17,481 nt of DNA from a virus (lineage: Duplodnaviria; Heunggongvirae; Uroviricota; Caudoviricetes): IMG/VR virus record IMGVR_UViG_2693429555_000018; one strand, written 5' to 3'. How positions within the stretch are numbered: position 1 is the stretch's first letter; the number at the start of each line of letters is the position of its first letter. Both the position numbers and the translations under genes were made by a program. Below the pieces are notes generated by a model. It made no database searches. It saw only the letters and a program-made list of their open reading frames with translations, and was not told the origin of the DNA. Positions 1 through 17,481 of this stretch are shown here, one piece after another.

Positions 1-204
1 ATGAACACCGACACTATTCCTACAAAAGGCTATATCAGACGCTTCCGCCTGGCTGAATTGCTGGGCGTTAGTGTATCCACCATCGACCGTAAAGTAAGAA
101 ACGGTTCACTACCACGTCCGGTAAAGCTGGGAGAAAAAATAACTGCGTTTGATGCGGTTGAGATTCACAACTGGCTGGCAGAACGCCGCGGGAAGGTGGC
201 CTGA
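1..204 (+). CDS. alpA: AlpA-family (phage excisionase-like, MerR-type HTH) regulator
   Basis: 67 aa; ATG at 1, TGA at 202-204 overlapping the next ATG (ATGA). The pattern RFRLAELLGVSVSTIDRKVRNGSLPRPVKLGEKITAFDAVEIHNWL fits the AlpA family signature (hydrophobic-x-G-x-S-x-sT-I, FP-x-PvKlG, E-i-x-x-Wl). Family assigned from memory, not searched. Confidence 0.8.
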   Translation: MNTDTIPTKGYIRRFRLAELLGVSVSTIDRKVRNGSLPRPVKLGEKITAFDAVEIHNWLAERRGKVA

Positions 205-635
205 TGGAAAAGAAAAACCGCCCATTACAGGCGGCTAATTCAGATATTCGCGTATCTGATGTTACGCCCCTGACAAAATCCCTTCAAGCACCAAAGCGCA
301 CACCAAAAAAGCATCGCGCCCGAGTCTATATGCTGCGTACTGGTATAGAGGGATGGACAGAAAACGACATTCTTCGCTACTGCCGTCTGTCTTCTGGTCG
401 TAACTATGCAACAGAGTTAGAACGCCAGCTTGGGATCACTCTGGAGCGTATCGACGAAAAGAATCCTGATGGTATCGGAGCACACCTTCGCTACCGTTTC
501 TCCTGCCGTGGTGATGTTCTGAAAGTGATCACTCATGTTAACCATCTTGCGAACATAAATGATCACAACGGACTTTCTCAGCAGGAAATTGCCGACATTC
601 TGAAACTCTACCCGGACGCGTTTAACGCCGCCTAA
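204..635 (+). CDS. hypothetical protein, function unknown
   Basis: 143 aa ORF; ATG at 204 overlaps the alpA stop (translational coupling). Sequence is protein-like, but I recognise no motif. Confidence 0.55.
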   Translation: MEKKNRPLQAANSDIRVSDVTPLTKSLQAPKRTPKKHRARVYMLRTGIEGWTENDILRYCRLSSGRNYATELERQLGITLERIDEKNPDGIGAHLRYRFSCRGDVLKVITHVNHLANINDHNGLSQQEIADILKLYPDAFNAA

Positions 636-647
636 CGGAGACTGAAA

Positions 648-1481
648 ATGAACATCGAAAAAAGCAGATTAATTTCTGAGGCCGCCCCTCATCCGAACGC
701 CTTTCTGGGCACAATTAACGGTAATGAATTTGCCGCAATTGTCCCGGTTATTCCTGGTCATATCGGTGGGCGTGAAACCAATATTGTTAGCGCAAAAGCG
801 TTACACAAAGCGTTGGGCGTGGGAAAAGACTTCTCTACATGGATCACTGATCGCATCTCTGAGTATGACTTCACCATTGGGCGCGATTACTCAGTCCATA
901 AAACAATTTCCCCAAATTTGGGGAAAAGCCCGAATGGCGCGGCTTACAGCAAGATTAAGCAGTCTGGCAGGCCCGGCAAAGACTATCTGTTAAGTGTCGG
1001 AATGGCGAAAGAACTGGCAATGATCGAACGCAATGATCAGGGTCGCGCTATCCGCCGTTATTTCATCCAGTGCGAGGAAGAATTACAGCGTAGCGTGCCT
1101 GAAATCGCCGCCCGCTATCGTCGCCAGCTAAAAGCCCGTATCAGTGCCGCAAACAACTTTAAGCCAATGTGCGATGCGCTGAATATGGCCCGTGCCGAGA
1201 TGGGTAAAACGACGCAGCAACACCACTACACAAACGAGAGCAATATGATTTCTCGTATCGTTCTTGGTGGGCTAACTGCTAAGCAGTGGGCGCGGATAAA
1301 TGGCTATTCTGGCGAACCTCGCGACCATATGAACGCAGAACAGCTTGAGCACCTCTCATATCTCGAAAGCACCAATATCACGTTAATTGATATGGGCATG
1401 GAATATGAGCAGCGCAAAGGAGAACTCACCCGCCTGTCGCAACGCTGGCTCGCTAAGCGTCTGGAGGCGGTCCATGTTTAA
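648..1481 (+). CDS. AntA/AntB-type phage antirepressor family protein
   Basis: 277 aa; GGAG 5-8 nt upstream of ATG 648. N-terminal segment SAKALHKALGVGKDFSTWITDRISEYDFTIGRDYSV and DYLLSVGMAKELAMIERNDQGRAIRRYFIQCEEEL match the conserved AntA-domain pattern (xLHxxLxVxxxFxxWIxxRIxxYxF...DY..., then hydrophobic-MAKELAM-x-x-R-x-xG-x-xxRxYFIxCE) as I recall it. Confidence 0.7.
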   Translation: MNIEKSRLISEAAPHPNAFLGTINGNEFAAIVPVIPGHIGGRETNIVSAKALHKALGVGKDFSTWITDRISEYDFTIGRDYSVHKTISPNLGKSPNGAAYSKIKQSGRPGKDYLLSVGMAKELAMIERNDQGRAIRRYFIQCEEELQRSVPEIAARYRRQLKARISAANNFKPMCDALNMARAEMGKTTQQHHYTNESNMISRIVLGGLTAKQWARINGYSGEPRDHMNAEQLEHLSYLESTNITLIDMGMEYEQRKGELTRLSQRWLAKRLEAVHV

Positions 1482-1656
1482 GCCGACAGGAACACCACAA
1501 CCTCAAAAACGCTACAAAGATGCCCACGGAGCACTCGTTACTGTCGAAAGCGTGTCTCACAACCGAGTGACGTTTTATCGCGACGGGTATCAATCGCCAT
1601 GCGTACAACCGCTGGCACGTTTCATGAAGGAGTTCGCGGAGGTTAACAAATGCTAA
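1474..1656 (+). CDS. small hypothetical phage protein (60 aa)
   Basis: ATG at 1474 preceded by GGAGG (1463-1467); overlaps the stop of the upstream gene (1479-1481). In frame with track ORF 1387..1656. Sequence YRDGYQSPCVQPLARFMKEFAEV resembles small lambdoid-prophage proteins, but family not established. Confidence 0.5.
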   Translation: MFKPTGTPQPQKRYKDAHGALVTVESVSHNRVTFYRDGYQSPCVQPLARFMKEFAEVNKC

Positions 1657-2311
1657 CCGCCCAGAAGAAGATATTTTCACTGGCTGGTATGTCGCAAAAA
1701 TCCAGCAATATGACAGCAAAATCAGGCATTAATACAGCAGATGCAAGCAAGGTTTATCATTTGCTGGTGGTAGGAGCGGATGCCTTAACTATGTCAGAAA
1801 TTACGGTCGATGGTGTTAGCGTTGAGAGGGTCAGCGGCTGCGCCAGAGAATTTCTGGTCGTAGATGGCTTTCTCTGCTCGCGTAGTGGCTCCACAAAAAC
1901 CTTCGTCCACACGCGCGACGTTAACGAAATGAGCGCGATGTATTGTGCATCTGGTGCTTCCAATAGTGAGTTTTCGGAGTCCATAAAAAAGAGCTTGTCG
2001 TTATGCGGCAACACGGTTTATGGTTATAAGGCACCTCATAAAACGGGTGCCGGGTTTCGCAGCCCGGAAATGTACGAGGCGACACATGACGCGCCGAGCG
2101 TCTTTTTTTGTGCCGTTAGCCAGACTCACACTTTTTTCAGTGATGTGGTTATAATCCGCGTCGCTTGCAAAATTATGGTGGGCTGGACAGGGCAGCCGAA
2201 AGGCTGGCCGGTTTCCTTGTACGCCGGTACTGCGAACTCTGTTCAGTCCACCACCAGCGAGTTTCGCAGCTCCGGTGGTGGGAAGAATTCCCAGTACAAG
2301 GAGGCTGCCAC

Positions 2312-2506
2312 ATGCTGGCTACTACCCCTACCCAAAAACCGCAATTTATCTGGATTATCGCCGCAGTTCGCCGCGATTGCCCGACAATTACCGCCAAAAT
2401 TCATCATATTGCTGCCGAGTCTGAACGCGATGCTCGCCGTTCTCTGGTGCGCGATCACGTCTGCTTTTTTGCTGGTCGTATCCGCATGGAGGTGGCACAT
2501 GATTAA
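2312..2506 (+). CDS. small hypothetical protein (64 aa)
   Basis: ATG 2312 preceded by AAGGAGG (2297-2303, 8-nt spacing). Product MLATTPTQKPQFIWIIAAVRRDCPTITAKIHHIAAESERDARRSLVRDHVCFFAGRIRMEVAHD is more protein-like than the overlapping frame-0 translation. Stop 2504-2506 overlaps the next ATG (2499). Confidence 0.45.
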   Translation: MLATTPTQKPQFIWIIAAVRRDCPTITAKIHHIAAESERDARRSLVRDHVCFFAGRIRMEVAHD

Positions 2507-2717
2507 AACCTACGATGTGCATATGGATCCCCTCGAACGCACAAGCCAGATCATCACACTGACAGAAGTGATTAATGACATTCTGGTGAGCAACTCTCCC
2601 TCACGAGACGAAAAACTGAAGGCGTTACTCGCGATATTGGATCTCGCCGTTCGTGACGTTCATTTCCTGCTGGAAGGTGGCGAAATGCCTGGAAAAACAG
2701 GGGCAACCAATGAATAA
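2499..2717 (+). CDS. small hypothetical protein (72 aa)
   Basis: ATG 2499 preceded by GGAGGTGG (2489-2496). Charged, helical-looking product MIKTYDVHMDPLERTSQIITLTEVINDILVSNSPSRDEKLKALLAILDLAVRDVHFLLEGGE. Same frame as the long ORF 1650..2717, so it could instead be an internal start. Confidence 0.45.
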   Translation: MIKTYDVHMDPLERTSQIITLTEVINDILVSNSPSRDEKLKALLAILDLAVRDVHFLLEGGEMPGKTGATNE

Positions 2718-2904
2718 CTCAATTAATGCCCCTCGACTTACGTCCGCACTTCAATTAATCGAGCAAGCAGCGGCTGTCCTGGTTGCTGTCAGTCTTTCGG
2801 CTGAAGAAATGGACGCTGCTGATGTCGTGGATGCGATTAAAGCGTGCTCATCTTTGGTTAACGATGCTCGTGCAGAGCTGGTAATTCTTGGGGGTGAAAA
2901 ATGA
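2710..2904 (+). CDS. small hypothetical protein (64 aa)
   Basis: ATG 2710 (MNNSINAPRL...) in frame with track ORF 2653..2904; overlaps the previous stop (2715-2717); AGGGG upstream. Product is acidic and Ala-rich. Confidence 0.5.
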   Translation: MNNSINAPRLTSALQLIEQAAAVLVAVSLSAEEMDAADVVDAIKACSSLVNDARAELVILGGEK

Positions 2905-3164
2905 ATATCAACTTAATTTATCGTCATCCGTGTGAGCTGGAAATTGAATCATTGCTGAGCCGTGAAGAGCCATATCCAGACACATTCACTCTTGCAGATC
3001 GCACGACTGAACGGCTTACCAGAGCGCGCACAGGTCTGGTTCATGTGATGAATGAGATTCTTCCATCGGTGGGAGGGGAACAGGCGACAGTAATCACTAG
3101 CTGGCTACAAAAAGTTACCTCTCTGATAGATATCAGTTTAATCGATGCGGAGAGTGCGAAATGA
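2901..3164 (+). CDS. small hypothetical protein (87 aa)
   Basis: ATG 2901 overlaps the previous stop as ATGA; GGGGGTG upstream. Acidic product. Confidence 0.55.
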   Translation: MNINLIYRHPCELEIESLLSREEPYPDTFTLADRTTERLTRARTGLVHVMNEILPSVGGEQATVITSWLQKVTSLIDISLIDAESAK

Positions 3165-3382
3165 CCAACATCCAGCTCATTGAAGCGCAATGTCGCATCG
3201 AACAGGTTCAGACTGTTTTAGGGTTCTGGCTTGAAGGGGCCAGCCCCAGCAACAGAGACAAGTTAATGATTGGCGCGGTTATGTCACTGCTCAATGGCGT
3301 ACCAGAAGCTATTCAGGAAGCAGACGAATTGTTGGGCAAATATGAGTTACAGAATCATTCAGGCGAGGCGAAACATGAATAA
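3161..3382 (+). CDS. small hypothetical protein (73 aa)
   Basis: ATG 3161 overlaps the previous stop as ATGA; GGAGAG upstream. Confidence 0.55.
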   Translation: MTNIQLIEAQCRIEQVQTVLGFWLEGASPSNRDKLMIGAVMSLLNGVPEAIQEADELLGKYELQNHSGEAKHE

Positions 3383-3977
3383 TTTCTTAACCTTCCATGC
3401 AGAAGCAACGCCTGACGGCGTAAACATCATACACCGCAGCAACGATGGCATGACAGAACGCGTTGAGGCCGTTTCATATATTGATGCCGTAAATCGTCTG
3501 GATGCCGGGGATTATGACGATAAACCAGATGAAGGTATGTCAATACATCTCGCTATTGCCGATGGCGGCAACCAAGGATATTTCGATTACACATCACAGC
3601 ATAACGTCATTATGTGGAGATGGCTGATCGCAACAGTATTCATGCTGGAAATGAGAGAGGAAAACGGCACTGTCAGCATCATTGATGATACTGGCAATCC
3701 TTCCGAAGTGGCTGTTTATTCCAACGGCATCGTCGCCATGCCGCTGTATCCAGTAGCAGAGCGCCTCGCTATGGCAAACAACATTGAGGGCGCGATGATA
3801 GAACGTTTTGGCATCGAGTCTGGCACAGAACGCGCCATCATTTTCTACAGAGCCATGATGGATGTGGAACAAGGAGCACTGACTCCATTTGGTCGTGAAA
3901 CGCTTGCTGAACTTCACAACAGCTTTATAGCTGAACTGAATGAAAACGGCATGCCAGCGGAACCAGTGACGCACTGA
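3375..3977 (+). CDS. hypothetical protein (200 aa)
   Basis: ATG 3375 (MNNFLTFHAEATPDG...) preceded by GAGG, overlapping the previous stop at 3380-3382. The track ORF start at 3270 lies inside the upstream gene and is less likely. Confidence 0.55.
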   Translation: MNNFLTFHAEATPDGVNIIHRSNDGMTERVEAVSYIDAVNRLDAGDYDDKPDEGMSIHLAIADGGNQGYFDYTSQHNVIMWRWLIATVFMLEMREENGTVSIIDDTGNPSEVAVYSNGIVAMPLYPVAERLAMANNIEGAMIERFGIESGTERAIIFYRAMMDVEQGALTPFGRETLAELHNSFIAELNENGMPAEPVTH

Positions 3978-3987
3978 GGATGGAGCC

Positions 3988-4329
3988 ATGATTACTAAAA
4001 ATTTCCGACTGAATGCGCTGGCAAATAAGTATGCGTCGGCACTGTATAACCACATTACCTCCACCAGCGGCGGGGACTATTTCATGGTTGATGCGGACGG
4101 CGAGGCCGTCCGTGTGGAAATCGTCAATGGAGTAAAAGGCGTTCGCAGCCTGATCGATAGCTACACACTGGCAGCCATGAAAGTGTTCTACCCGCAGTGG
4201 GAAACCGTGGTGATAGAGCTTCTTGATCGTTGCGTCACTAAGGACGGATTGACTGACGTCGGGCGTGAGATATGGCAAAGCATGGTTAATGACATGGGCG
4301 CAACTGTAGCGGGAGGTTCTCATGCGTGA
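3988..4329 (+). CDS. hypothetical protein (113 aa)
   Basis: ATG 3988 preceded by GAGGATGGAG; stop overlaps the next start. Confidence 0.6.
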   Translation: MITKNFRLNALANKYASALYNHITSTSGGDYFMVDADGEAVRVEIVNGVKGVRSLIDSYTLAAMKVFYPQWETVVIELLDRCVTKDGLTDVGREIWQSMVNDMGATVAGGSHA

Positions 4330-4693
4330 AAATGCAGAAATGGCGCTTAGCTCCGCAATCGGAGAGCAGGTGGCAAAGATTGCTGGCGCTGTGTGGATTC
4401 ATAACCTTCATTCTACTAGTGAAGAGAAAATGGCAATTCAGACGCCAGAGGGACGCACCATTACTACATCTCTGAAGCCGTCAGATGTTTGTGATCTGAT
4501 TTGCGCATTCATGTACCCAGCAATGAGGACTGTCCACGGCGATAAGTGGAAACTTGCGACAACCGCTGAATTTGATATGTGGCTAAACAATGATGGCATG
4601 CTGACTGATTACGGAATAACCAAGTGGCAGATGCTGGTTAGCCATATCGCAAACGCTATAGACCACGTGGGGTACGGTGATGCGAAACATTGA
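4322..4693 (+). CDS. hypothetical protein (123 aa)
   Basis: ATG 4322 preceded by GGGAGG; 3' end overlaps the primase start. Confidence 0.6.
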   Translation: MRENAEMALSSAIGEQVAKIAGAVWIHNLHSTSEEKMAIQTPEGRTITTSLKPSDVCDLICAFMYPAMRTVHGDKWKLATTAEFDMWLNNDGMLTDYGITKWQMLVSHIANAIDHVGYGDAKH

Positions 4694-7436
4694 TCTTATC
4701 CGTCAGGTTATCAGTGCGTCTGAAAACAACTGGCCTCATGTGCTGGGCTGCCTGAACATAAATGTCCCTGACTCTCCGCGCCGTCATGCTCCCTGCCCTG
4801 CATGTGGGGGCAAAGATCGATTCCGGTTCGATGACAACGGGCGCGGTAGCTTCATCTGTAATCAGTGCGGCGCTGGTGATGGGCTGGATTTAATTAAACG
4901 CGTAAATAACTGCGACACAACAGAGGCGGCGCTTCTTGCCGCTGATGTTCTGGGTATTGATTACCGGACAACGGAAACACCAGAAGCCACCAGCCAGAAA
5001 CGGGAACAACTGGAAACCGAGCGCCAGCGACGCGAACAGGAGCGCCTGAAAAGGGCAGAGAAGGACGAACAACAAAGACGGGATACGTTTTCCCGTCAGT
5101 TTGATGACATGCGCAGAAAGGCTGTAAACGGCAAATCTGATTATCTGGTTGCGAAAGGGGTAGGTGATTTTACATTCCCCGTGTTGCCCGATGGATCTCT
5201 GTTGCTGGCGCTGGTGGATAAATCCGGCGCAGTAACAGCAGCACAGACTATTACCTCACATGGTGAAAAAAGACTCCTGATAGGTTCAGCAAAGCGGGGG
5301 GCATATCACGCCATAAACGCACCAGAAACAACACAGAGCATCTTAATCGCAGAAGGGCTGGCAACGGCATTATCTGCCCATTTAATGCGTCCAGAGGCGC
5401 TGACAGTGGCGGCGATTGATGCCGGGAACCTGTTATATGTCGCCCAGGTACTGCGGGATAAATTTCCTTCAGCACAAATCATCATTGCTGCGGATAACGA
5501 CCACAGCGAAGGAAGACAAAACACGGGGAGAATAGCAGCAGAAAAAGCAGCTTTATCTGTTTCTGGATGGGTGGCATTACCCCCGACAGATCACAAAGCA
5601 GACTGGAATGATTACCACCAAAAACACGGCATTAAATGCGCCACAGAAGCGTTCAATAAGTCAATGTACCAACCACAGGGTAATGGCGTGAAACAGGAGC
5701 CACAAACCATTGAGGGAAGCGATTTTAAGGTTATGGATACCGACCCACTGAAACCAAGAATAGAAAGCCGCGAGGATGGCATTTATTGGGTATCTCCGAG
5801 AGCTGACAGCCAGAGTGGAGAAATCATCAATAACGAAAGCTGGTTATGTTCTCCGTTAAGCGTTATCGGTACTGGCAGAGACGATAAAGACCAGTATCTC
5901 ATTCTTCGCTGGCTGTCGTTTGGTTCTGAAACGCCGACAACCGCTGCCATTCCACTGGCTGATATTGGTGAACGTGAAGGATGGCGCACACTTAAAGCTG
6001 GTGGGGTAAATGTCACGACCAAAAGCAGCCTCAGAGCAATACTGGCAGACTGGCTACAACGCAGTGGCTCTCGTGAATTGTGGCGTGTTGCTCATGCCAC
6101 TGGCTGGCAATGCGGAGCGTACATCATGCCTGATGGGGAAATCATCGGAACACCTGAAAATCCTGTGCTGTTCAGCGGGAGAAGCTCAGCCGCAGCCGGA
6201 TATACCGTCTCAGGGAGCGCGAAAAGCTGGCGTGATAACGTGGCGCGTCTGGCCTTTGGTAACTATTCAATGATGACCGGGATCGGCGCAGCACTGGCAG
6301 CGCCATTGATTGGGCTGGTGGGCGCTGACGGGTTCGGCATTCATTTCTATGAGCAGTCGAGCGCAGGTAAGACCACCACGGCAAACGTGGCGAGCAGCTT
6401 ATACGGCAACCCTGATTTACTGCGGCTGACGTGGTACGGAACCGCGCTGGGGCTGGCAAATGAAGCCGCCGCCCACAATGACGGACTAATGCCGCTTGAT
6501 GAAGTTGGTCAGGGCGCTGATCCTGTCAGTGTTTCACAGTCTGCCTATGCGTTATTTAACGGTGTAGGGAAACTGCAAGGCGCTAAAGATGGTGGAAACC
6601 GGGATCTAAAACGCTGGCGTACAGTGGCAATCAGCACCGGAGAAATGGATTTAGAAACATTTATCGCTACTTCCGGGCGAAAAACCAAAGCCGGGCAACT
6701 GGTGCGACTGCTGAATATTCCGTTGAGTAAAGCAGTACGCTTTCACGATTACCAGAACGGAAAACAGCACGCAGACGCACTGAAAGACGCTTACCAGCAT
6801 CACCACGGCGCAGCCGGGCGTGAGTGGATTAAATGGCTGGCAGACCACCAGCAACAGGCAATTAAAACTGTTCGTGACTGCGAAAGCAGATGGAGAAGTC
6901 TGATCCCATCCGATTATGGTGAGCAGGTTCACCGTGTAGCCGCGCGATTTGCCATTCTGGAGGCCGCATTGCTGTTAGGCGAGGTTGTAACAGGCTGGGA
7001 TGCTCAGACATGCCGTGATGCGATACAGCACAGCTATAACGCATGGTTGCGCGAGTTCGGCACAGGTAACAAAGAACATCAGCAGATTATTGAACAAACG
7101 GAGGCATTTCTTAATGCCTATGGGCTTAGCCGTTTTGCACCATTTCCATACAGCCCGGCAGATTTGCCCATCAAAGATTTAGCCGGATACCGTCAGCGTG
7201 GAGAACATGACGAAAGCCCAATGATTTTCTACACATTCCCGGCCACATTTGAAAAGGAGATCGCATGTGGTTTCAACGCAAAACAGTTTGCTGAAGTGTT
7301 GAAAAAAGCCGGGATGCTAACCCCACCAAACAGCGGTCGTGGATACCAAAGAAAATCACCACGTATTCAGGGACGACAAATAAACGTTTATGTACTCAAT
7401 TACCAGCCAGGAGATTACAACTCATCTGAAGAATGA
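4680..7436 (+). CDS. P4-alpha-like / PICI-type replication protein: primase (zinc ribbon + TOPRIM) fused to a P-loop helicase-like domain
   Basis: About 918 aa from ATG 4680 (GTG 4677 also possible; GGGG 7 nt upstream). Cys4 zinc ribbon CPACGGKDRFRFDDNGRGSFICNQCG (nt ~4792-4868). TOPRIM-like acidic motifs IAEGLATA (~5347-5370) and AADNDHSEG (~5488-5514). P-loop SSAGKTT (6357-6377). This architecture is established for P4 alpha and satellite Pri-Rep proteins; an iteron cluster follows immediately. Confidence 0.85.
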   Translation: MRNIDLIRQVISASENNWPHVLGCLNINVPDSPRRHAPCPACGGKDRFRFDDNGRGSFICNQCGAGDGLDLIKRVNNCDTTEAALLAADVLGIDYRTTETPEATSQKREQLETERQRREQERLKRAEKDEQQRRDTFSRQFDDMRRKAVNGKSDYLVAKGVGDFTFPVLPDGSLLLALVDKSGAVTAAQTITSHGEKRLLIGSAKRGAYHAINAPETTQSILIAEGLATALSAHLMRPEALTVAAIDAGNLLYVAQVLRDKFPSAQIIIAADNDHSEGRQNTGRIAAEKAALSVSGWVALPPTDHKADWNDYHQKHGIKCATEAFNKSMYQPQGNGVKQEPQTIEGSDFKVMDTDPLKPRIESREDGIYWVSPRADSQSGEIINNESWLCSPLSVIGTGRDDKDQYLILRWLSFGSETPTTAAIPLADIGEREGWRTLKAGGVNVTTKSSLRAILADWLQRSGSRELWRVAHATGWQCGAYIMPDGEIIGTPENPVLFSGRSSAAAGYTVSGSAKSWRDNVARLAFGNYSMMTGIGAALAAPLIGLVGADGFGIHFYEQSSAGKTTTANVASSLYGNPDLLRLTWYGTALGLANEAAAHNDGLMPLDEVGQGADPVSVSQSAYALFNGVGKLQGAKDGGNRDLKRWRTVAISTGEMDLETFIATSGRKTKAGQLVRLLNIPLSKAVRFHDYQNGKQHADALKDAYQHHHGAAGREWIKWLADHQQQAIKTVRDCESRWRSLIPSDYGEQVHRVAARFAILEAALLLGEVVTGWDAQTCRDAIQHSYNAWLREFGTGNKEHQQIIEQTEAFLNAYGLSRFAPFPYSPADLPIKDLAGYRQRGEHDESPMIFYTFPATFEKEIACGFNAKQFAEVLKKAGMLTPPNSGRGYQRKSPRIQGRQINVYVLNYQPGDYNSSEE

Positions 7437-7461
7437 GCTTCTTCATGTGCGTAGAAAAGGC

Positions 7462-7572
7462 GTTGGTTCAGTTGGTTCAGTTGGTTCAATTTGTAAAGAG
7501 TATTGTTTTATAAGAATTTTATTCTTTTTATTGAACCAACACTGAACCAACAGCACGGTATTTTGAACCAAC
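7462..7572. repeat. iteron cluster, candidate origin of replication (ori-like)
   Basis: Three tandem GTTGGTTCA at 7462-7470, 7471-7479 and 7480-7488; a ~43-bp AT-rich spacer; then three inverted copies TGAACCAAC at 7532-7540, 7543-7551 and 7564-7572. Lies directly downstream of the primase stop (7436), the usual ori position in PICI-like elements. Confidence 0.6.
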
Positions 7573-7622
7573 ACAATGTGACTGAATTGATGCGCACAAC
7601 ACCTGGCTGGCATCAGAGAGTG

Positions 7623-7698
7623 TTTTACGAGACTTTCGTAAAATCCTGTGTACAAGGGCGTGACGTTTTTGAAAGTGAGCACTACGAAATTTTCGTAG
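7623..7698. promoter_or_regulatory. two related palindromic operator-like sites (TACGA...TCGTA)
   Basis: TTTTACGA-GACTT-TCGTAAAA at 7623-7643 and CTACGAAA-T-TTTCGTAG at 7682-7698: 8-bp inverted arms with a shared core, about 59 bp apart, between the ori and the terminator. Confidence 0.3.
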
Positions 7699-7893
7699 TT
7701 CAGAAAACAGCCCCTGAGAAGTTGTTATACCTGTTCAGCAAACCATCCGCATAGCTGATCGCGAATCAAATTACCAATGGAGCCAGAAGCAAGGGCAGAA
7801 CTGAAAAGCGCCTGCCGTGAAGAGTAATGCGACACCATAAATATAGTTTTTAGAGTCCATAAAAAACCTGTCAAAACCTGACACACAGAACGA

Positions 7894-7926
7894 TGCCACC
7901 AGCTACTGAGCGGTGGCATTTTTTTG
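7894..7926 (+). terminator. rho-independent terminator
   Basis: Stem TGCCACC (7894-7900) / GGTGGCA (7912-7918), 11-nt loop, followed by a T7 run (7919-7925). Confidence 0.55.
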
Positions 7927-8020
7927 TGCTATCTGTTTCATATTTTGCAATTACGATGATGAATATTGCGATTTGTGAAACTATAATAACTGTTGTTTTA
8001 TACAGTTCTAAGGGGGCGTT

Positions 8021-8182
8021 ATGGCTATTTCAGTAAAGCCGGTATTGATAAGTGAGAAGCAAATGGAAGCGATAAAGAAAATTCAGGAAGAGCAGCGTAA
8101 AAAATCAGGAATTGGAGTAGCGCCAACTCTGCATGAAATTGCACGAGGGTTAATAGATAAGGCGCTGGCAGGCTGTATGTGA
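8021..8182 (+). CDS. small hypothetical protein (53 aa), possibly DNA-binding
   Basis: ATG 8021 preceded by AAGGGGG (8010-8016); product MAISVKPVLISEKQMEAIKKIQEEQRKKSGIGVAPTLHEIARGLIDKALAGCM. Not in the ORF track (under 60 aa). Function is a guess. Confidence 0.4.
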   Translation: MAISVKPVLISEKQMEAIKKIQEEQRKKSGIGVAPTLHEIARGLIDKALAGCM

Positions 8183-8198
8183 AAATGGATGGCATCGC

Positions 8199-8660
8199 AT
8201 GGAACTAAAATTTATTGATAACCCTGTGCGATTACAGGCCTTTCTCAACGAGCCTGGCAATACCGAAAATATTGTTGAGCCGGGGCACACGTACTACATC
8301 AAGCCTGATGCGGTATATCTCGGTATCTACGAAGGATTGGTGCTGGCTGGCGTTCATGAAGTGCGTAACTTCTGGCATAGCATTGTTGAATGCCATGCGG
8401 TGTACGACCCCGGATTCCGTGGTGAATATGCACTGCAAGGGCATCGATTATTCTGCAAATGGCTTCTCGAAAACTCACCATTCCTTAACAGCATTACCAT
8501 GGTTCCTGACACAACGAAATACGGACGGGCAATTATCAGTTTGCTTGGCGCTACCCGTGTTGGTCACCTTGATGATGCTTATATCAGATGTGGTAAACCC
8601 GTCGGCGTAACGCTTTATCAGTTAACTCGGCAACAATATAAGGAATTCAGCGAGTGTTAA
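8199..8660 (+). CDS. phage protein; by position possibly a P22 gp14-like protein
   Basis: 153 aa, protein-like ORF directly upstream of the three coupled putative ejection-protein genes. Assignment rests only on size and synteny with the P22 order 14-7-20-16. Confidence 0.5.
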   Translation: MELKFIDNPVRLQAFLNEPGNTENIVEPGHTYYIKPDAVYLGIYEGLVLAGVHEVRNFWHSIVECHAVYDPGFRGEYALQGHRLFCKWLLENSPFLNSITMVPDTTKYGRAIISLLGATRVGHLDDAYIRCGKPVGVTLYQLTRQQYKEFSEC

Positions 8661-9331
8661 TTACCCATATAGCTCATAAACATCTCAATCGTGCCGTATA
8701 CGAAAAAGGCGGTGATGGTGGTGCCTCTAAAGCTCAGGCGAAGGCCCAGCAGCAGGCAATTGATTTGCAGCGCGAGCAGTGGAATACGGTGATGAATAAT
8801 CTCAAGCCGTATGCAGAAGTCGGATTGCCTGCTTTACAACAACTACAAGGACTGATGACTCTGGAAGGGCAGAATAAAGCCGCGAATGATTTCTTTGGTT
8901 CTGGTTTATATAAAACACAGGCAGATCAGGCCCGTTATCAGAACCTTGTCTCAGCAGAAGCTACCGGGGGGCTTGGCTCAACAGCTACCAGTAACCAGTT
9001 ATCTTCCATTGCGCCCATGCTTTATAACAATTGGCTTAGTGGGCAAATGCAAAATTATGGAAACCTGCTAAATGTCGGGATGAATGCGGCATCAGGGCAG
9101 GCAACAGCAGGGCAAAACTACGCCAATAATACCGGACAACTCTTGCAGGGGCTTGGCGCTATTCGTGCAGGTCAGGCGCAGCAGCCATCCAGTCTTGCGC
9201 GTGGTATTGGTGGGGCGGCATCAGGCGCTTTAGCGGGTGCGCAACTTGGTTCCGTTGTTCCGGGTATAGGTAATGTCGCCGGGGCTATTGGTGGTGGGCT
9301 TATTGGTCTTGTTGGGGGGCTTGGATTCTAA
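8654..9331 (+). CDS. putative phage DNA-ejection (transfer) protein, P22 gp7-like
   Basis: 225 aa; GTG start at 8654 overlapping the upstream stop; Gly-rich hydrophobic C-terminus (GIGGAASGALAGAQLG...GGLIGLVGGLGF). Size and position fit gp7 (~229 aa) in the P22 order 14-7-20-16. Synteny inference, not an alignment. Confidence 0.55.
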   Translation: MLITHIAHKHLNRAVYEKGGDGGASKAQAKAQQQAIDLQREQWNTVMNNLKPYAEVGLPALQQLQGLMTLEGQNKAANDFFGSGLYKTQADQARYQNLVSAEATGGLGSTATSNQLSSIAPMLYNNWLSGQMQNYGNLLNVGMNAASGQATAGQNYANNTGQLLQGLGAIRAGQAQQPSSLARGIGGAASGALAGAQLGSVVPGIGNVAGAIGGGLIGLVGGLGF

Positions 9332-10752
9332 TGGCGACATGGCAACTTGGCGGGCTGCCTAGCATGGTACCGCAAAATGATAATGCTCCTCGTTCTTCCG
9401 TTCCTCAGCCTGTGCAGTTTCAGCAGCAGCCAAACGTAGGTTTAATGGCGCTACAGGGGCTAAGAGGCGTTGCTGAGATTAATCAGCAGGCACGTCAACA
9501 ACAGCGTAAAGCAGAGTTTCAGAAAGCATATGCCGGGGCTTTTGAGTCTGGAGACAGAAACAAAATGCGCAGTCTTATTTCTGAGTATCCAGAAGAATTT
9601 GAAAGCGTTCAGAAAGGGATGGGCTTTATTGATGACGACCAGAGAAATTCTATTGGTCATCTTGCGACTAGTGCTCAAATCGCATCTTCGCTCGGAACTG
9701 GGGCATTTGGAAAATTCATAGCAGATAACGAAGATGAAATGCGTCGCTTGGGAATTTCTCCTGAGTCTGTTGCCGAAATGCATGTTAATGATCCACAGGA
9801 ATTCCAGCGGCTTGCTGGTAGTATGGCACTGTTTTCTCTCGGTCATGAGAAGTACTTCGATATCAAAGATCGAATGGAAGGTCGGGATATTGAGCGTGGC
9901 AAGTTGGCAGAGACAATCCGCAGCAATCAGGCTGGAGAGGCGCTTCAGGCGAGAGGGCAGGATATTAGCCGAGCAAATGCGTTAACGTCAGCATATGCAC
10001 CAACAGCCGCAATGCAGAATTACAATCAGTACGCGCAAATGTTAAAGGCGGATCCAGAGGGGGCAGCGGCATTTGCGGCAGCGGCTGGAATTAATACAAA
10101 CGCCAAAAAATTAATGAGTGTTAGGGAAAACGATGATGGCACTGTCACAAAATACTACACAGACGGAAGTGAAGAGCAGGGAAAACTAAACCAGCCAATA
10201 TCTGGAGATGGGTTTCGTCCAATAGCTTTGCCAACAGCCCAAAAGATCATGGAAAAGTCGCCAGAAGGGGCTAAAAAAGCTGCTGGATTTGCATACAGAG
10301 TTAGGGATGCTCTTGATTCAATGGATACACTGAAAGGCCAGCTTAGCCCACAGCGAGTGGCGATCATTAATAATGCTTTGGGTAATGGGACGCTGGCTAA
10401 CTTAACGCTCAGCCCAACAGAGCAGCAATACGTTGTTAATGCTAATGACGCAATAATGGCAATACTCCGTCAGGAAACAGGGGCAGCTATCGTACCTGCT
10501 GAAATGTCAAAATATTATCAAATGTATTTCCCTCAGCCTGGCGACTCCACAAAAACCATTGATACCAAGCGCCGGAAGATGGAAAACCAGTTCAATTCGC
10601 TGAAAGCTGCTTCTGGTCGAGCTTATGATGCTTTGCGTGTTATTTCAGCAGTTGACAGAGGAACTTCTTCTTCGTCGCAGACATTGCCGCAATCTGAGCA
10701 GGTATCACAGCCAGCAGCCAGCAGTAATTTTTCTTCACTATGGGGTGATTAA
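9331..10752 (+). CDS. putative phage DNA-ejection protein, P22 gp20-like
   Basis: 473 aa; TAATG overlap with the upstream gene. Size matches P22 gp20 (~471 aa) and the position matches. Confidence 0.6.
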   Translation: MATWQLGGLPSMVPQNDNAPRSSVPQPVQFQQQPNVGLMALQGLRGVAEINQQARQQQRKAEFQKAYAGAFESGDRNKMRSLISEYPEEFESVQKGMGFIDDDQRNSIGHLATSAQIASSLGTGAFGKFIADNEDEMRRLGISPESVAEMHVNDPQEFQRLAGSMALFSLGHEKYFDIKDRMEGRDIERGKLAETIRSNQAGEALQARGQDISRANALTSAYAPTAAMQNYNQYAQMLKADPEGAAAFAAAAGINTNAKKLMSVRENDDGTVTKYYTDGSEEQGKLNQPISGDGFRPIALPTAQKIMEKSPEGAKKAAGFAYRVRDALDSMDTLKGQLSPQRVAIINNALGNGTLANLTLSPTEQQYVVNANDAIMAILRQETGAAIVPAEMSKYYQMYFPQPGDSTKTIDTKRRKMENQFNSLKAASGRAYDALRVISAVDRGTSSSSQTLPQSEQVSQPAASSNFSSLWGD

Positions 10753-14963: not shown

Positions 14964-15084
14964 GTTGGTTCACGGCCTCTTTTTGTTGGTTCAAAAATGG
15001 GGTGTGTTGGTTCACATTTTGCGAATAATCCTTTTAAAAACAATACTCTTTACAAATTGAACCAACTGAACCAACTGAACCAAC
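14964..15084. repeat. second iteron cluster, an inverted copy of the 7462-7572 ori-like region
   Basis: GTTGGTTCA at 14964-14972, 14985-14993 and 15006-15014; AT-rich spacer; three tandem TGAACCAAC at 15058-15066, 15067-15075 and 15076-15084. Bases 15037-15084 are the exact reverse complement of 7462-7510 (about 48 bp). Confidence 0.6.
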
Positions 15085-15120: not shown

Positions 15121-15408
15121 ATGATAAGGGACAGGAAAGCTGAAGAGCTGGAGTTAAAAGGGCTATGCCGGAGAGCTGCCACACGATGGGCAGAAGTCAT
15201 GACGCTGGCAGATGGCGATAAAGAACGTGAACATGCAGCAAACAGACGCTCTGAATATATCCGTAGGGCGGCACGCCCACCAGCAACTACAGACAGATTC
15301 GGAGACTTAAGACAGGCAGTTAAGCGAACGCATTCAGCTCTTGGTATGGATGAGGAAGCGAGAGGGTACTTCAGGCGTTATCGCGATAAAGATTGCCAGC
15401 TACGATAA
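15121..15408 (+). CDS. hypothetical basic protein (95 aa)
   Basis: ATG 15121 preceded by GAGAGG (15110-15115); Arg-rich product. No recognised motif. Confidence 0.5.
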   Translation: MIRDRKAEELELKGLCRRAATRWAEVMTLADGDKEREHAANRRSEYIRRAARPPATTDRFGDLRQAVKRTHSALGMDEEARGYFRRYRDKDCQLR

Positions 15409-15577: not shown

Positions 15578-16342
15578 ATGACTACAACGGTATATGATCG
15601 TGTTAACGCCTTAGTAGCGACCGACTCTAGGTGGTCTGTTGATCTTAGCCCACATGGCTACGATGGTCATATCCTGTATATTGACGACACCGGCTTCGGT
15701 AAGCTAGCTCCACGAAATGATTTTGTTATGCTTTTAGCCGGTGATGGTCTTTTGATTCAGTTATGGAAGCATTGGTGGCGAGGAGACCTATCTCAACAAG
15801 AACCACCAGTTGTTTTACCTACTGGTCAATCGGTAAATTTACATATTGTGAAAAAATCAACTAATGAAGTGATTTTTGATAAAGGTCAAAAATTAGTTGT
15901 AAAAAATAACGAAACGGAAGAACTGTTCGCTGTCTTTACAGGCTCAGGATGCGGTGCTGCTGCGCAAAACTGGATGTATAGCCATTGCGCAAGATCAGCA
16001 ATTGAAGAATCTAAAAAGCTTGACCCATACACTGGCGGCACTGTACGTTTTTTAGACTTCAGGACTAACGCATCATTAGTAGAAGACTCTGTTTCAACCA
16101 TTAGCGAAGTAAACGAAGCTCTATTGCAGAGGGGGCTGATTATGGATACCAAAAACCCACATTCACCACACGTTTCTATCAGTGCACAAGAAGTTGCTGA
16201 AGTTCGTCAAATGCTGGTTAGTGGTTCAATTACCCCATGTGCACCAGTAGGCCAAAGAACCCAAGATTGGGATGACAACTCCAAATTGCGTTTAGCAAAT
16301 GCTATTCAGCGTATTCGTGAAGAAGAAGCACAAATGCGATAA
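15578..16342 (+). CDS. Ntn-hydrolase-like protein with HslV / proteasome-beta-type motifs
   Basis: 254 aa, visibly AT-richer than its neighbours. N-terminus MTTTV… (Thr after the initiator Met, as in HslV MTTIV… and archaeal beta TTTVG…). ALVATDSRWS resembles the proteasome-beta GVIVAADSRAT block (Asp17 region). LFAVFTGSGCGAAAQ resembles HslV LIAIGSGGPYAQAA. An ~80-aa C-terminal extension is present. Followed by a strong terminator. Confidence 0.6.
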   Translation: MTTTVYDRVNALVATDSRWSVDLSPHGYDGHILYIDDTGFGKLAPRNDFVMLLAGDGLLIQLWKHWWRGDLSQQEPPVVLPTGQSVNLHIVKKSTNEVIFDKGQKLVVKNNETEELFAVFTGSGCGAAAQNWMYSHCARSAIEESKKLDPYTGGTVRFLDFRTNASLVEDSVSTISEVNEALLQRGLIMDTKNPHSPHVSISAQEVAEVRQMLVSGSITPCAPVGQRTQDWDDNSKLRLANAIQRIREEEAQMR

Positions 16343-16835: not shown

Positions 16836-16878
16836 ACAGATTTACTTTCTTTGCAATCGATATCACATGGAGTGGGCA

Positions 16879-17481
16879 ATGAACGAACATCATCAACCTT
16901 TTGAAGAGATAAAACTGATTAATGCAAACGGAGCAGAACAATGGTCAGCAAGACAACTTGGGAAACTACTGGGTTATTCAGAGTATCGTCACTTTATACC
17001 TGTATTAACGCGCGCCAAAGAGGCCTGTGAGAACAGTGGTCACACAATTGATGACCATTTCGAGGAGATCCTCGATATGGTCAAAATTGGCTCAAATGCC
17101 AAAAGAGCATTAAAAGACATCGTACTCTCCCGCTATGCCTGTTACCTGGTATTACAAAACGGCGACCCCGCGAAACCGGTCATTGCGGCAGGGCAGACTT
17201 ATTTTGCTATCCAGACCCGACGGCAGGAGCTTGCTGACGATGAAGCATTTAAGCAACTTCGTGAAGACGAAAAGCGTCTGTTTCTGAGAAATGAGTTGAA
17301 AGAACATAACAAACAATTGGTTGAGGCAGCACAGCAAGCTAATACCACACACTTTGACGTGGGTAGCAAGGTGAGGCAAACCATTCAGGAACTTGGCGGA
17401 ACCATGCCTGAGGAGTTGCCGACCCCGCAGGTCAGCATCAAGCAGTTGGAAAACAGTGTAAAAATTACAGAGAAGAAATAG
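16879..17481 (+). CDS. dinD: DNA-damage-inducible protein D (DinD)
   Basis: ORF ending with TAG at 17479-17481. Start most likely ATG 16879 (MNEHHQPFEEIKLIN…, GGAG 6 nt upstream); the in-frame ATG at 16867 is an alternative. Identification rests on the LexA box plus my recollection of the E. coli DinD sequence; not searched. Confidence 0.8.
   Translation: MNEHHQPFEEIKLINANGAEQWSARQLGKLLGYSEYRHFIPVLTRAKEACENSGHTIDDHFEEILDMVKIGSNAKRALKDIVLSRYACYLVLQNGDPAKPVIAAGQTYFAIQTRRQELADDEAFKQLREDEKRLFLRNELKEHNKQLVEAAQQANTTHFDVGSKVRQTIQELGGTMPEELPTPQVSIKQLENSVKITEKK

Follow-up and report, generated by a model that had tools for sequence, protein, structure and literature searches.

A putative P4-like early operon of eight small genes, preceded by a C4-type RNA, in an EcCIMP1-type satellite of Escherichia coli

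In phage P1, icd lies between c4 and ant, and translation of icd is needed for expression of ant. In the satellite P4, kil is the first gene translated from PLE; it is lethal when over-expressed and is nested in a longer frame, eta. Forti and colleagues reportedly found in 1999 that translation across the P4 eta/kil region prevents Rho-dependent termination at t_imm. A summary of the eta/kil mechanism is available in PMC10111431. The present work concerns eight small open reading frames (ORFs), O1 to O8, that occupy plus-strand positions 2312-4693 upstream of a primase gene in IMG/VR virus record IMGVR_UViG_2693429555_000018 (Caudoviricetes); this whole stretch of 17,481 nucleotides is referred to below as the window. 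We consider it probable that the eight ORFs are the body of an early operon resembling the left operon of P4, gated by an immunity RNA and organized like the immI region of P1.

Among described elements, the nearest is EcCIMP1, a 20-kb phage-inducible chromosomal island (PICI) of E. coli MP1 that occupies the same tRNA-Thr site (Pick, Stadel & Raivio 2025, PMC11773190). Its excision and transduction require a P22-like helper, vB_EcoP_Kapi1, and alpA is its master regulator and activator; the island also confers additional superinfection immunity against Kapi1, the gene responsible for this effect was not named, and the small ORFs and RNAs were left unanalyzed (PMC11773190). Gram-negative PICIs comprise four zones (Integration, Bro, Replication and Late) and carry captured helper late genes, and Rfam C4 and isrK matches in their Bro zones have already been described (PMC10111431). 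They are recognized by int-alpA, Bro-type genes, a primase with an adjacent origin, a few captured late genes and the lack of a full virion module (PMC10111431, PMC6092414).

Positions 194-9491 of the window are 98.98% identical in DNA to the EcCIMP1 locus of MP1. The sequence-only reading of this stretch had assumed a satellite setting, P4-like or PICI, and the assumption holds: by its sequence, the element is an EcCIMP1-type PICI, a satellite of E. coli of an already known kind. The gene content expected of a Gram-negative PICI is present in the form of alpA, antA, DUF4222, an ash-type frame, the primase, iterons and a gp14/gp7/gp20/gp16 block. The gene order (hyp-antA-DUF4222-ash-icd-small ORFs-DUF927 primase-DUF2824-gp7-gp20) is that of EcCIMP1, and the C4 loop and target described below are of identical type. 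The two elements differ past 9491 (gp20 C-terminus and gp16), at the right end and in the alpA allele, which in the window has 33% amino acid identity to that of EcCIMP1 and of the closest relative among the loci compared, L001, versus 96-99% to those of islands L003-L005. Because the similarity to EcCIMP1 begins sharply at 194, a recombination break lies at the junction of alpA and the next gene. The MP1 locus and L001 have RefSeq protein identifiers for Icd and O3-O8 in common, and the window counterparts are 98-100% identical to the L001 proteins. By analogy, given the 99% identity over 9.3 kb, helper-dependent excision, replication and transfer may be attributed to the window element as well.

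The window falls outside the P4-like satellites as delimited by Moura de Sousa & Rocha (PMC8628076). The P4 late genes psu, sid and delta are not annotated in L001 or in another related island, L020, and the Pfam matches of the window ORFs past the primase are limited to DUF2824, P22_gp7, Inj_translocase, PerC and Bro-N. No match to epsilon (PF25738) was found, either by Pfam or by comparison with the P4 proteins.

The RNA control region upstream of O1

Two plus-strand RNA genes lie directly upstream of O1; they were overlooked in the sequence-only reading, and they probably control the whole chain. The first is an isrK-like leader RNA, similar to P4 seqA (2031..2108; Rfam RF01394, 69 bits against a gathering threshold of 50), in which a terminator scan located an intrinsic terminator followed by a T run (2088-2102, plus strand). 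The second is an antisense immunity RNA of the C4/CI type (2171..2258; Rfam RF01695, 81.1 bits against a gathering threshold of 45, model positions 1-87 of 87). Complementarity between this RNA and its surroundings was located by means of exact complementary k-mers. The loop of its second hairpin, UCCUUGUAC (2214-2222), is complementary to 2294-2302, and a stem segment, GGCAGCC (2191-2197), is complementary to 2303-2309. The target is thus a contiguous stretch of 16 nucleotides (nt), GUACAAGGAGGCUGCC (2294..2309, plus strand), that lies over the Shine-Dalgarno (SD) site of O1 and ends 2 nt before the ATG at 2312. A second plus-strand target site, UUCGCAG (2263..2269), is complementary to CUGCGAA in the C4 RNA (2230-2236), and a further copy of UUCGCAG is found inside the isrK-like RNA (2056-2062). 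Judged by eye, the UUCGCAG site co-varies in other loci.

Covariation of the C4 loop with the O1 site is the strongest single result of the analysis. Nine distinct loop sequences are found across the loci, P4 itself and Serratia included, and each is accompanied by a compensating change upstream of an invariant GAGGCUGCC. The cognate loop and target share 8-10 nt of complementarity in all nine types; the mean for non-cognate pairs is 3.5 nt. This pattern indicates that pairing of the RNA with the O1 ribosome-binding site is under selection and that it defines immunity specificities. By analogy with P4 and P1, binding of the C4 RNA would either terminate transcription of the downstream operon in a Rho-dependent manner or block its translation.

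The arrangement of target segments is that of seqA, seqB and seqC in P4, where likewise the loop of a CI/C4-type RNA pairs with a site over the kil/icd SD. The immI region of P1 and P7 (c4-icd-ant) shares with the window an RNA of the Rfam C4 family, an Icd-family ORF directly downstream of it and an antisense target that overlaps the ribosome-binding site of that ORF. The cargo differs, however: it is ant in P1, whereas here it consists of seven small ORFs and the primase gene, with the antirepressor (antA/antB) encoded ahead of the RNA. The isrK-orf45-anrP locus of the Salmonella prophage Gifsy-1 (PMC4825925) also has an Rfam isrK match and a terminated leader before a prophage operon; the genes downstream are unrelated, and the comparison covered the Rfam match and the leader.

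The coupled chain and the frame that crosses O1

All eight ORFs are on the plus strand and begin with ATG: O1 (64 amino acids, 2312-2506), O2 (72, 2499-2717), O3 (64, 2710-2904), O4 (87, 2901-3164), O5 (73, 3161-3382), O6 (200, 3375-3977), O7 (113, 3988-4329) and O8 (123, 4322-4693). Consecutive junctions from O1 to O6 are overlaps of 8, 8, 4, 4 and 8 nt, followed by a 10-nt gap and, between O7 and O8, another 8-nt overlap. O8 in turn overlaps the gene of a 918-residue primase-helicase by 14 nt (ATG 4680) or 17 nt (GTG 4677); this last gene of the operon ends at 7436 on the same strand and encodes a Zn ribbon, Toprim_3 and DUF927 (Pfam; phrog_1139). An SD-like site precedes every start, with anti-SD duplex energies of -5.7 to -13.8 kcal/mol; random 20-mers from the window average -3.0 kcal/mol, and 14% of them reach -6 or lower. 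The site of O2 is strong, and that of O3 is the weakest of the chain. Between 1 and 7400, the only terminator-like site on the plus strand is the one at 2088-2102, upstream of the chain; none lies inside it. The sequence-only reading had described eight ORFs of 64-200 amino acids linked by overlaps of 4 to 8 nt, each with an SD site and the whole coupled to a co-oriented primase gene. That description was borne out apart from the 10-nt gap and the point at which the chain begins.

Indeed, the coupling extends well upstream. The first gene, alpA (1..204, plus strand, as are all those that follow), encodes an AlpA/HTH_17 regulator (Pfam PF05930, E 2.2e-8), and its stop is overlapped by 1 nt, in ATGA fashion, by the start of a 143-residue protein (204..635) that is 77-99% conserved in related islands. 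After 12 nt comes the gene for an AntA/AntB-family antirepressor of the Bro zone (648..1481; PF08346, E 1.3e-21), which a DUF4222 gene (1474..1656; PF13973, E 6e-25) overlaps by 8 nt. The DUF4222 gene is in turn overlapped by 7 nt by a frame of 355 codons (1650..2717), named “ash family protein” by PGAP, that spans both RNA genes, traverses O1 in a different frame and finishes as O2; we call it the eta-like frame. Through these couplings the chain measures 7.4 kb, from alpA to the primase stop, rather than starting at 2312.

O1 is the first ORF past the C4 RNA, and its SD lies within the antisense target. Its product fits the NCBIfam profile NF033153 (Icd-like) over positions 1-48 of 48 (71.7 bits, cut-off 25, E 3.7e-20) and has 43% identity (phmmer E 2e-11) to P4 Kil, the C-terminal 65 residues of the old P4 “cI” ORF. 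By family, O1 is therefore a putative small inhibitor of cell division of the Icd/Kil type. The claim that none of the eight products matches a known family was thus too broad; besides O1, the products of O5, O6 and O7 belong to PHROG families (phrog_20558, phrog_1515 and phrog_37628, respectively), and residues ~73-186 of O6 are probably DUF5375/P4 Cnr-like. Among 11 E. coli copies, O1 has three variable sites in 195 nt, none of them synonymous, versus 14 in the adjacent O2; this paucity is compatible with a double constraint. The RNA region just upstream of the near-invariant O1 exists in three or four strongly diverged variants.

A P4-like position had been proposed for the chain, and it does correspond to the kil-epsilon-orf151-orf106-alpha block of P4 (orf106 is cnr), which is also joined by 8-nt overlaps. 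The P4 left operon reads orf88/vis (an AlpA-family excisionase-regulator), eta/kil with the CI RNA, epsilon, orf151, orf106 and alpha. In both elements a Kil/Icd homologue is the first to be translated, a long frame spans the RNA gene, and small ORFs chained by 8-nt overlaps run into a primase-helicase; a probably Cnr-like gene precedes the primase in each. In contrast to P4, the window has no homologue of epsilon or orf151, the islands L001 and L020 have no annotated psu/sid/delta late genes, the C-terminal part of the primase is DUF927 instead of the P4 type, and O2-O5, O7 and O8 are without P4 counterparts. The eta-like frame of the window is moreover out of frame with icd and ends in O2.

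The eta-like frame is open through the RNA genes in 17 of the 17 loci examined. O2 constitutes its last 72 codons, in the same frame. The window type is represented by 11 E. coli loci, among which the C4 region has three or four variants, and by the Serratia marcescens island L019 (4697-5605). Here the frame is +1 to icd, covers icd from end to end and stops with O2; P4 and the islands L004, L005, L008, L009 and L011 instead have icd/kil in the same frame as the long one. The icd genes of E. coli and Serratia differ at 58 of 195 nt, and yet the +1 frame lacks a stop in both, while the third frame has 2-4. Since the frame stays open across icd and its amino acids there are not conserved, we read this as selection for the transit of ribosomes and not for a protein, in two lineages, a reading that agrees with the P4 model.

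The Pfam match to Phage_ASH (PF10554) in this frame covers residues 124-232, or window positions 2019-2346. It thus falls on the same DNA as the isrK-like (2031-2108) and C4 (2171-2258) RNAs, and one protein model and two RNA models describe the same sequence. The “ash family protein” and Phage_ASH annotations here overlie two Rfam RNA families. PF10554 served as the “epsilon” profile in one survey of P4-like satellites (PMC8628076); P4 epsilon itself matches PF25738, not PF10554. Several names given to these proteins in databases are spurious: O4 appears as “nicotinic acetylcholine receptor subunit beta”, an ORF in the same slot of L004 as “ubiquinol-cytochrome C reductase”, O2 in one source as “phage immunity repressor protein”, and the O6 homologues of Klebsiella phages as “2-polyprenylphenol hydrolase”.

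From these elements we propose the following scheme; what it says of termination, of promoters, of translation as an anti-terminator and of every protein function is modeled on P4 and P1. The leader, with its isrK-like (seqA-like) RNA and the C4/CI-type antisense RNA, precedes the chain. In the immune, resident state, the C4 loop would pair with the O1 ribosome-binding site and block O1 translation; with translation-coupled protection lost, transcription would end before O2-O8 and the primase gene. Upon helper activation through AlpA, upstream transcripts would be translated continuously from alpA. Ribosomes would then cross the RNA genes and O1 in the eta-like frame and exit as O2, and the 4-8-nt overlaps would hand them down the chain to the primase, rendering expression insensitive to the immunity RNA. 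O1 would serve both as the gate and as an inhibitor of host division.

Several observations weigh against this scheme. No sequence resembling a sigma-70 promoter was found immediately before the isrK-like RNA; a weak TTGTCG-18-TATGGT can be made out there by eye. Across icd, the +1 frames of E. coli and Serratia agree at 28 of 64 amino acids and the third frames at 29 of 64, compared with 46 of 65 for icd itself, and the openness of the eta-like frame could be due to chance in the two lineages. Because O1 and the eta-like frame differ in phase in the window type and not in P4, the P4 model may not transfer exactly. With regard to O6, Pfam DUF5375 (PF17345) matches none of 45 family members at E values up to 0.1, and some O6-bearing phage records annotate no primase gene in the regions inspected.

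The gated operon might also be put to use in abortive infection or superinfection exclusion, which we regard as possible, if on balance improbable: proteins of an incoming phage would lift its repression and the Icd-like protein would halt the cell, for which the small proteins and primase would be required co-factors. A prophage of strain ECOR61 carries six linked genes, a long Icd-like gene and a primase gene among them (Silas et al., bioRxiv 10.1101/2023.04.06.535777). A phage accessory gene triggers programmed cell death through that cluster, and removal of the Icd-like gene abolishes the response; P22 Abc1 similarly triggers a P4 prophage, possibly via kil (bioRxiv 10.1101/2023.04.06.535777). 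The two loci, compared by description only, share an Icd-like protein with an N-terminal extension, linked small genes, a primase and a prophage-like element. The ECOR61 cluster differs in having six genes and a demonstrated cell-death phenotype, whereas the operon described here is known from its sequence alone. The superinfection immunity of EcCIMP1 against Kapi1, for which no gene was named (PMC11773190), would fit such a role if it mapped to this operon. The proposal is in any case compatible with the gating scheme, as it concerns the use of the same gated operon.

The small proteins of the chain

The sequence-only reading had named conservation in related elements and a coding-type substitution pattern as the check on these ORFs, and all eight recur in related elements with such a pattern. 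We compared 17 related loci from E. coli, Escherichia sp., Kosakonia, Enterobacter, Cedecea, Serratia and P4, computing ratios of nonsynonymous to synonymous substitution (dN/dS) by the Nei-Gojobori method for each relative versus the window. The ratios were 0.12-0.34 for O1, 0.05-0.30 for O2, 0.10-0.33 for O3, 0.11-0.29 for O6 and 0.15-0.38 for O7. For O5, the value was 0 within E. coli save for one replacement in L003 (0.13), and ~0.4 between genera. Polymorphic sites among the 11 E. coli copies were also counted by codon position in the annotated frame and in the other frames. The counts at positions 1/2/3 were 2/4/8 for O2, 2/1/4 for O3, 1/0/4 for O5 and 19/17/49 for O6; the third-position preference was confined to the annotated frame, and all four ORFs had more codons with synonymous changes only in the true frame than in the alternative ones.

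More distant relatives give the same picture. The Serratia island L019 has homologues of O1, O2, O3, O5 and O8 (71, 42, 41, 43 and 57% amino acid identity, respectively) that are near synonymous saturation, with proportions of synonymous differences (pS) of 0.63-0.82 versus 0.19-0.40 for nonsynonymous ones (pN); for the O2 homologue (41.5% identity) the values are 0.82 and 0.35. Homologues of O5 are found in Enterobacter, Cedecea (as two tandem copies) and Serratia, and those of O8 in Kluyvera, Citrobacter and Serratia. Database searches returned 550 homologues of O6, 130 of O7 and 21 of O8, all from Enterobacterales and all annotated as hypothetical. We conclude that all eight ORFs evolve as proteins and that none is artefactual.

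The composition of the chain was followed by a chain walk over nine islands and subsequent clustering. All nine contain icd and seven contain O6. Members of the O4 family number eight, in seven islands, those of the O7/O8 family seven, in six, and those of the O5 family six, in five; O2 and O3 are confined to the E. coli type and Serratia. The O7-O8 or the O2-O3 pair is missing from some islands. Five of them (L003, L012, L013, L015 and L016) lack O7 and O8 with the neighboring genes unchanged, O7 is paired with a P4-family primase in L004 and L005, and unrelated small ORFs fill the same slots elsewhere. With variable genes between a constant icd and the primase, the chain is best described as a cassette-like array of independent small genes. 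In the asymptomatic-bacteriuria strain E. coli 83972, O7 has an internal stop and is a PGAP pseudogene (L017 3490-3831). The P4-like islands L104-L106 of E. coli have a shorter chain of a long Icd-like ORF, a 73-74-residue ORF, DUF5375 and primase, with overlapping junctions. The 74-residue protein is probably the 75-residue protein reported in 61% of P4-like elements and absent from P4 (PMC8628076).

O2-O5 look like short helical proteins, and none matched a family of assigned function, a structure or a defense system. Their union with the 74-residue protein into a single paralogous family of helical hairpins was considered and rejected as unsupported (phmmer E >=0.02, that is, at least 0.02; profile-profile probabilities below 26%), and similarity of the 74-residue protein to O2-O5 was undetectable. 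In the proposed scheme, O2-O5, O7 and O8 may be interchangeable early accessory proteins under purifying selection.

Within this array O4 stands apart. It is retained between genera, with 59-62% amino acid identity in Kosakonia, Enterobacter and the diverged E. coli island L004 (tblastn E 1e-32 to 1e-35), and yet its dN/dS within E. coli, the highest of the chain, is 0.5-0.6, and its polymorphism among the E. coli alleles, 6/5/5 across the codon positions, has no third-position bias. This combination suggests relaxed or diversifying selection, and O4 may be a fast-evolving interaction surface.

O7 and O8 are, by sequence comparison, paralogues (phmmer E 1e-5; hhalign 55%, E 1.2e-4, 93 columns), and a joint alignment was built from them. 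The AlphaFold2 (AF2) model of O7 from this alignment has a mean predicted local distance difference test score (pLDDT) of 90.7 and a predicted template modeling score (pTM) of 0.83. The predicted alpha/beta fold combines a long helix at the N terminus with a beta-hairpin and three helices. Foldseek comparison of the model with PDB and BFVD found no relative (best E 0.17, template modeling score (TM) <=0.38), and sequence searches of PDB with the O6 and O7/O8 profiles gave nothing below E 0.008. The O7/O8 fold is thus predicted with confidence and, in PDB and BFVD, is without a known relative.

The 130 O7 homologues are spread across Enterobacterales, and the gene also occurs beside xis/int in a Yersinia prophage and in two phage records. 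phiP27, Stx phages and Klebsiella prophages are among the phages whose early-left operons contain relatives of O6 (32-36% identity). As relatives of O6 and O7 thus reside in early operons of ordinary temperate phages, neither family is satellite-specific. One record of this kind is “Elizabethkingia phage EKP1” (GenBank OM284015), which has homologues of O6 and O7, the latter 64% identical; its DUF4222, PrtN and DinI genes are of kinds usual in temperate phages of enterobacteria, and part of it matches window DNA. The Flavobacteriia host stated for EKP1 looks doubtful.

These data bear on the sequence-only view of the chain as a reservoir of satellite effectors for helper derepression, redirection of capsids and packaging, or anti-defense, a reasonable guess that we nonetheless find doubtful. 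The position is that of P4 epsilon, gene content differs from island to island, the substitution pattern of O4 is what one would expect of a protein tracking a variable partner, and O7/O8 have a confident fold of no known kinship. However, searches of Pfam, NCBIfam, PHROGs and PADLOC over O1-O8 matched only the Icd-like family (O1) and PHROGs of unknown function (O5-O7), with no defense or anti-defense family, and epsilon (PF25738) has no homologue. The O6 and O7 families recur in the early operons of phiP27, EKP1 and the Yersinia prophage. A dedicated AntA/AntB antirepressor is encoded upstream, and the packaging and late functions of Gram-negative PICIs lie downstream of the primase (PMC10111431, PMC11773190).

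Second only to icd in breadth of conservation among the small ORFs, O6 is probably distantly related to P4 Cnr (DUF5375). P4 Cnr acts on the alpha protein and through it exerts negative control of replication. Its gene, the Pfam DUF5375 ORF orf106, is directly upstream of alpha. A 45-sequence O6 profile (A4; effective sequence number, Neff, 5.6) was aligned by hhalign with orf106 (89%, E 2.2e-6) and with a five-sequence DUF5375 profile (91.8%, E 7.5e-7). The latter had been widened with diverged E. coli copies because the matches to orf106 in viral contigs are near-identical (80 loci, mostly 99-100%, lowest 93%) and add no diversity. Both alignments extend over 92-93 columns and residues 7-101 of 106, with a 22-residue insertion in O6. 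The outcome depends on profile depth: a shallow 17-sequence O6 profile (A1) gave a probability of 1.9% against the P4 proteins. Even at E values up to 1, PF17345 matched neither O6 nor three members with a precomputed PF17345 flag. An AlphaFold model of O6 from the 17-sequence alignment was unusable (pLDDT 49), and a search for representatives gave 143 clusters, nearly all of them stand-alone proteins of ~200 residues, with no informative domain fusion among them.

By analogy with P4, the probable role of O6 is to partner or regulate the primase in the manner of Cnr. That the ORFs past O1 are chiefly replication accessories of the primase, acting in copy-number control, origin loading or recruitment of the host replisome, is an unlikely extension of this idea. 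Location speaks for it: O6 directly precedes the primase in seven fetched islands (L003, L009, L011-L013, L015 and L016), the DUF5375 gene has the same place in P4 and L103-L106, P4-like islands carry icd, a 74-residue ORF, DUF5375 and primase in that order, and origin-like iterons follow the window primase. The cnr family, with a stated role in copy number, lies between epsilon and alpha in 90% of P4-like elements (PMC8628076). In the window, O7 and O8 intervene between O6 and the primase. Against the idea, two unrelated types of primase C-terminus, DUF927 and P4-family/DUF5906, are found in company with O6 and O7, which occur as well in phage early-left operons beside int/xis, and many islands with the same primase dispense with O7+O8 or with O2+O3.

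That some ORFs are artefacts of gene calling, mere chance frames in a leader, is hardly credible: several are short (64-87 residues) and have no Pfam match, O4 lacks third-position bias and O2 lies inside a longer frame, but every ORF has homologues in other genera at 41-70% amino acid identity with saturated synonymous sites, codons with synonymous changes only favor the true frame in O2, O3, O5 and O6, SD sites are present throughout, and O4 is recovered across genera by tblastn at E 1e-32 to 1e-35.

Surroundings, distribution and meaning

Just past the primase gene, at 7462..7572, origin-like iterons of the sequence GTTGGTTCA are arranged as three direct and three inverted copies around an AT-rich spacer. 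A second cluster of six exact copies, again three direct and three inverted, is found 7.4 kb away at 14964-15084, shortly before the PerC gene. When at most one mismatch is allowed, GTTGGTTCA has 17 matches versus 4.2 expected. The two clusters recall ori plus crr in P4.

Between 8199 and 12857, past the primase, lies a P22-type block that encodes DUF2824 (at the P22 gene-14 position), gp7, gp20 (Inj_translocase) and a 701-residue protein at the gp16 position; such a block is also present in the Serratia island (L019 9396-12528). The satellite family thus carries its own DNA-ejection proteins, which fits a P22-like helper. At the gp16 position, MP1 has a larger protein with an SLT domain, and the window diverges from ~9491. 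A literature search worded for satellites with P22-type ejection proteins found nothing.

L001 is an island at tRNA-Thr beside proA that has its integrase upstream and, toward its far end, a PerC-family gene. Integrase and tRNA-Thr also lie just upstream in L020; the window itself opens at alpA. Similarity to L001 stops at 15399, within the 3' end of the PerC-family gene (15121-15408). The genes beyond are a 254-residue ORF with no Pfam match (15578-16342) and a Bro-N-domain ORF that runs off the window end (16867-17481). The right end of the window thus differs from both L001 and EcCIMP1.

Matches to window positions 2000-4700, the 2.7 kb that begin with the RNA leader and reach the primase start, were found in 926 of 5426 complete E. 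coli genomes; in 258 genomes at least 80% of this segment (>=80%) is carried, and the O2-O3 segment is present in 490 of the 5426. EcCIMP1-like islands or parts of the operon are therefore found in about one sixth of complete E. coli genomes.

The type of element and the type of control were already known. What is new are the uncharacterized small families, chiefly the O7/O8 fold and the fast-evolving O4, and the out-of-frame eta-like bridge. An antisense-RNA gate with nine co-varying specificities would provide a regulatory model for a PICI family hitherto described only as AlpA-controlled. It would also narrow the candidates for superinfection immunity to an Icd/Kil toxin-like gate, a probable Cnr-like replication regulator and five small protein families. 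We put forward, tentatively and as less probable than not, two linked readings: that the eta-like frame is a translational bridge selected for ribosome transit, by which the antisense-RNA gate would be overridden on induction of the island, and that the cargo of O2-O5 and O7/O8 holds one or more effectors of EcCIMP1 superinfection immunity or of an Icd-armed abortive response resembling that of ECOR61. If this is true, O7/O8 would represent a new protein fold for a role in superinfection immunity or abortive infection.

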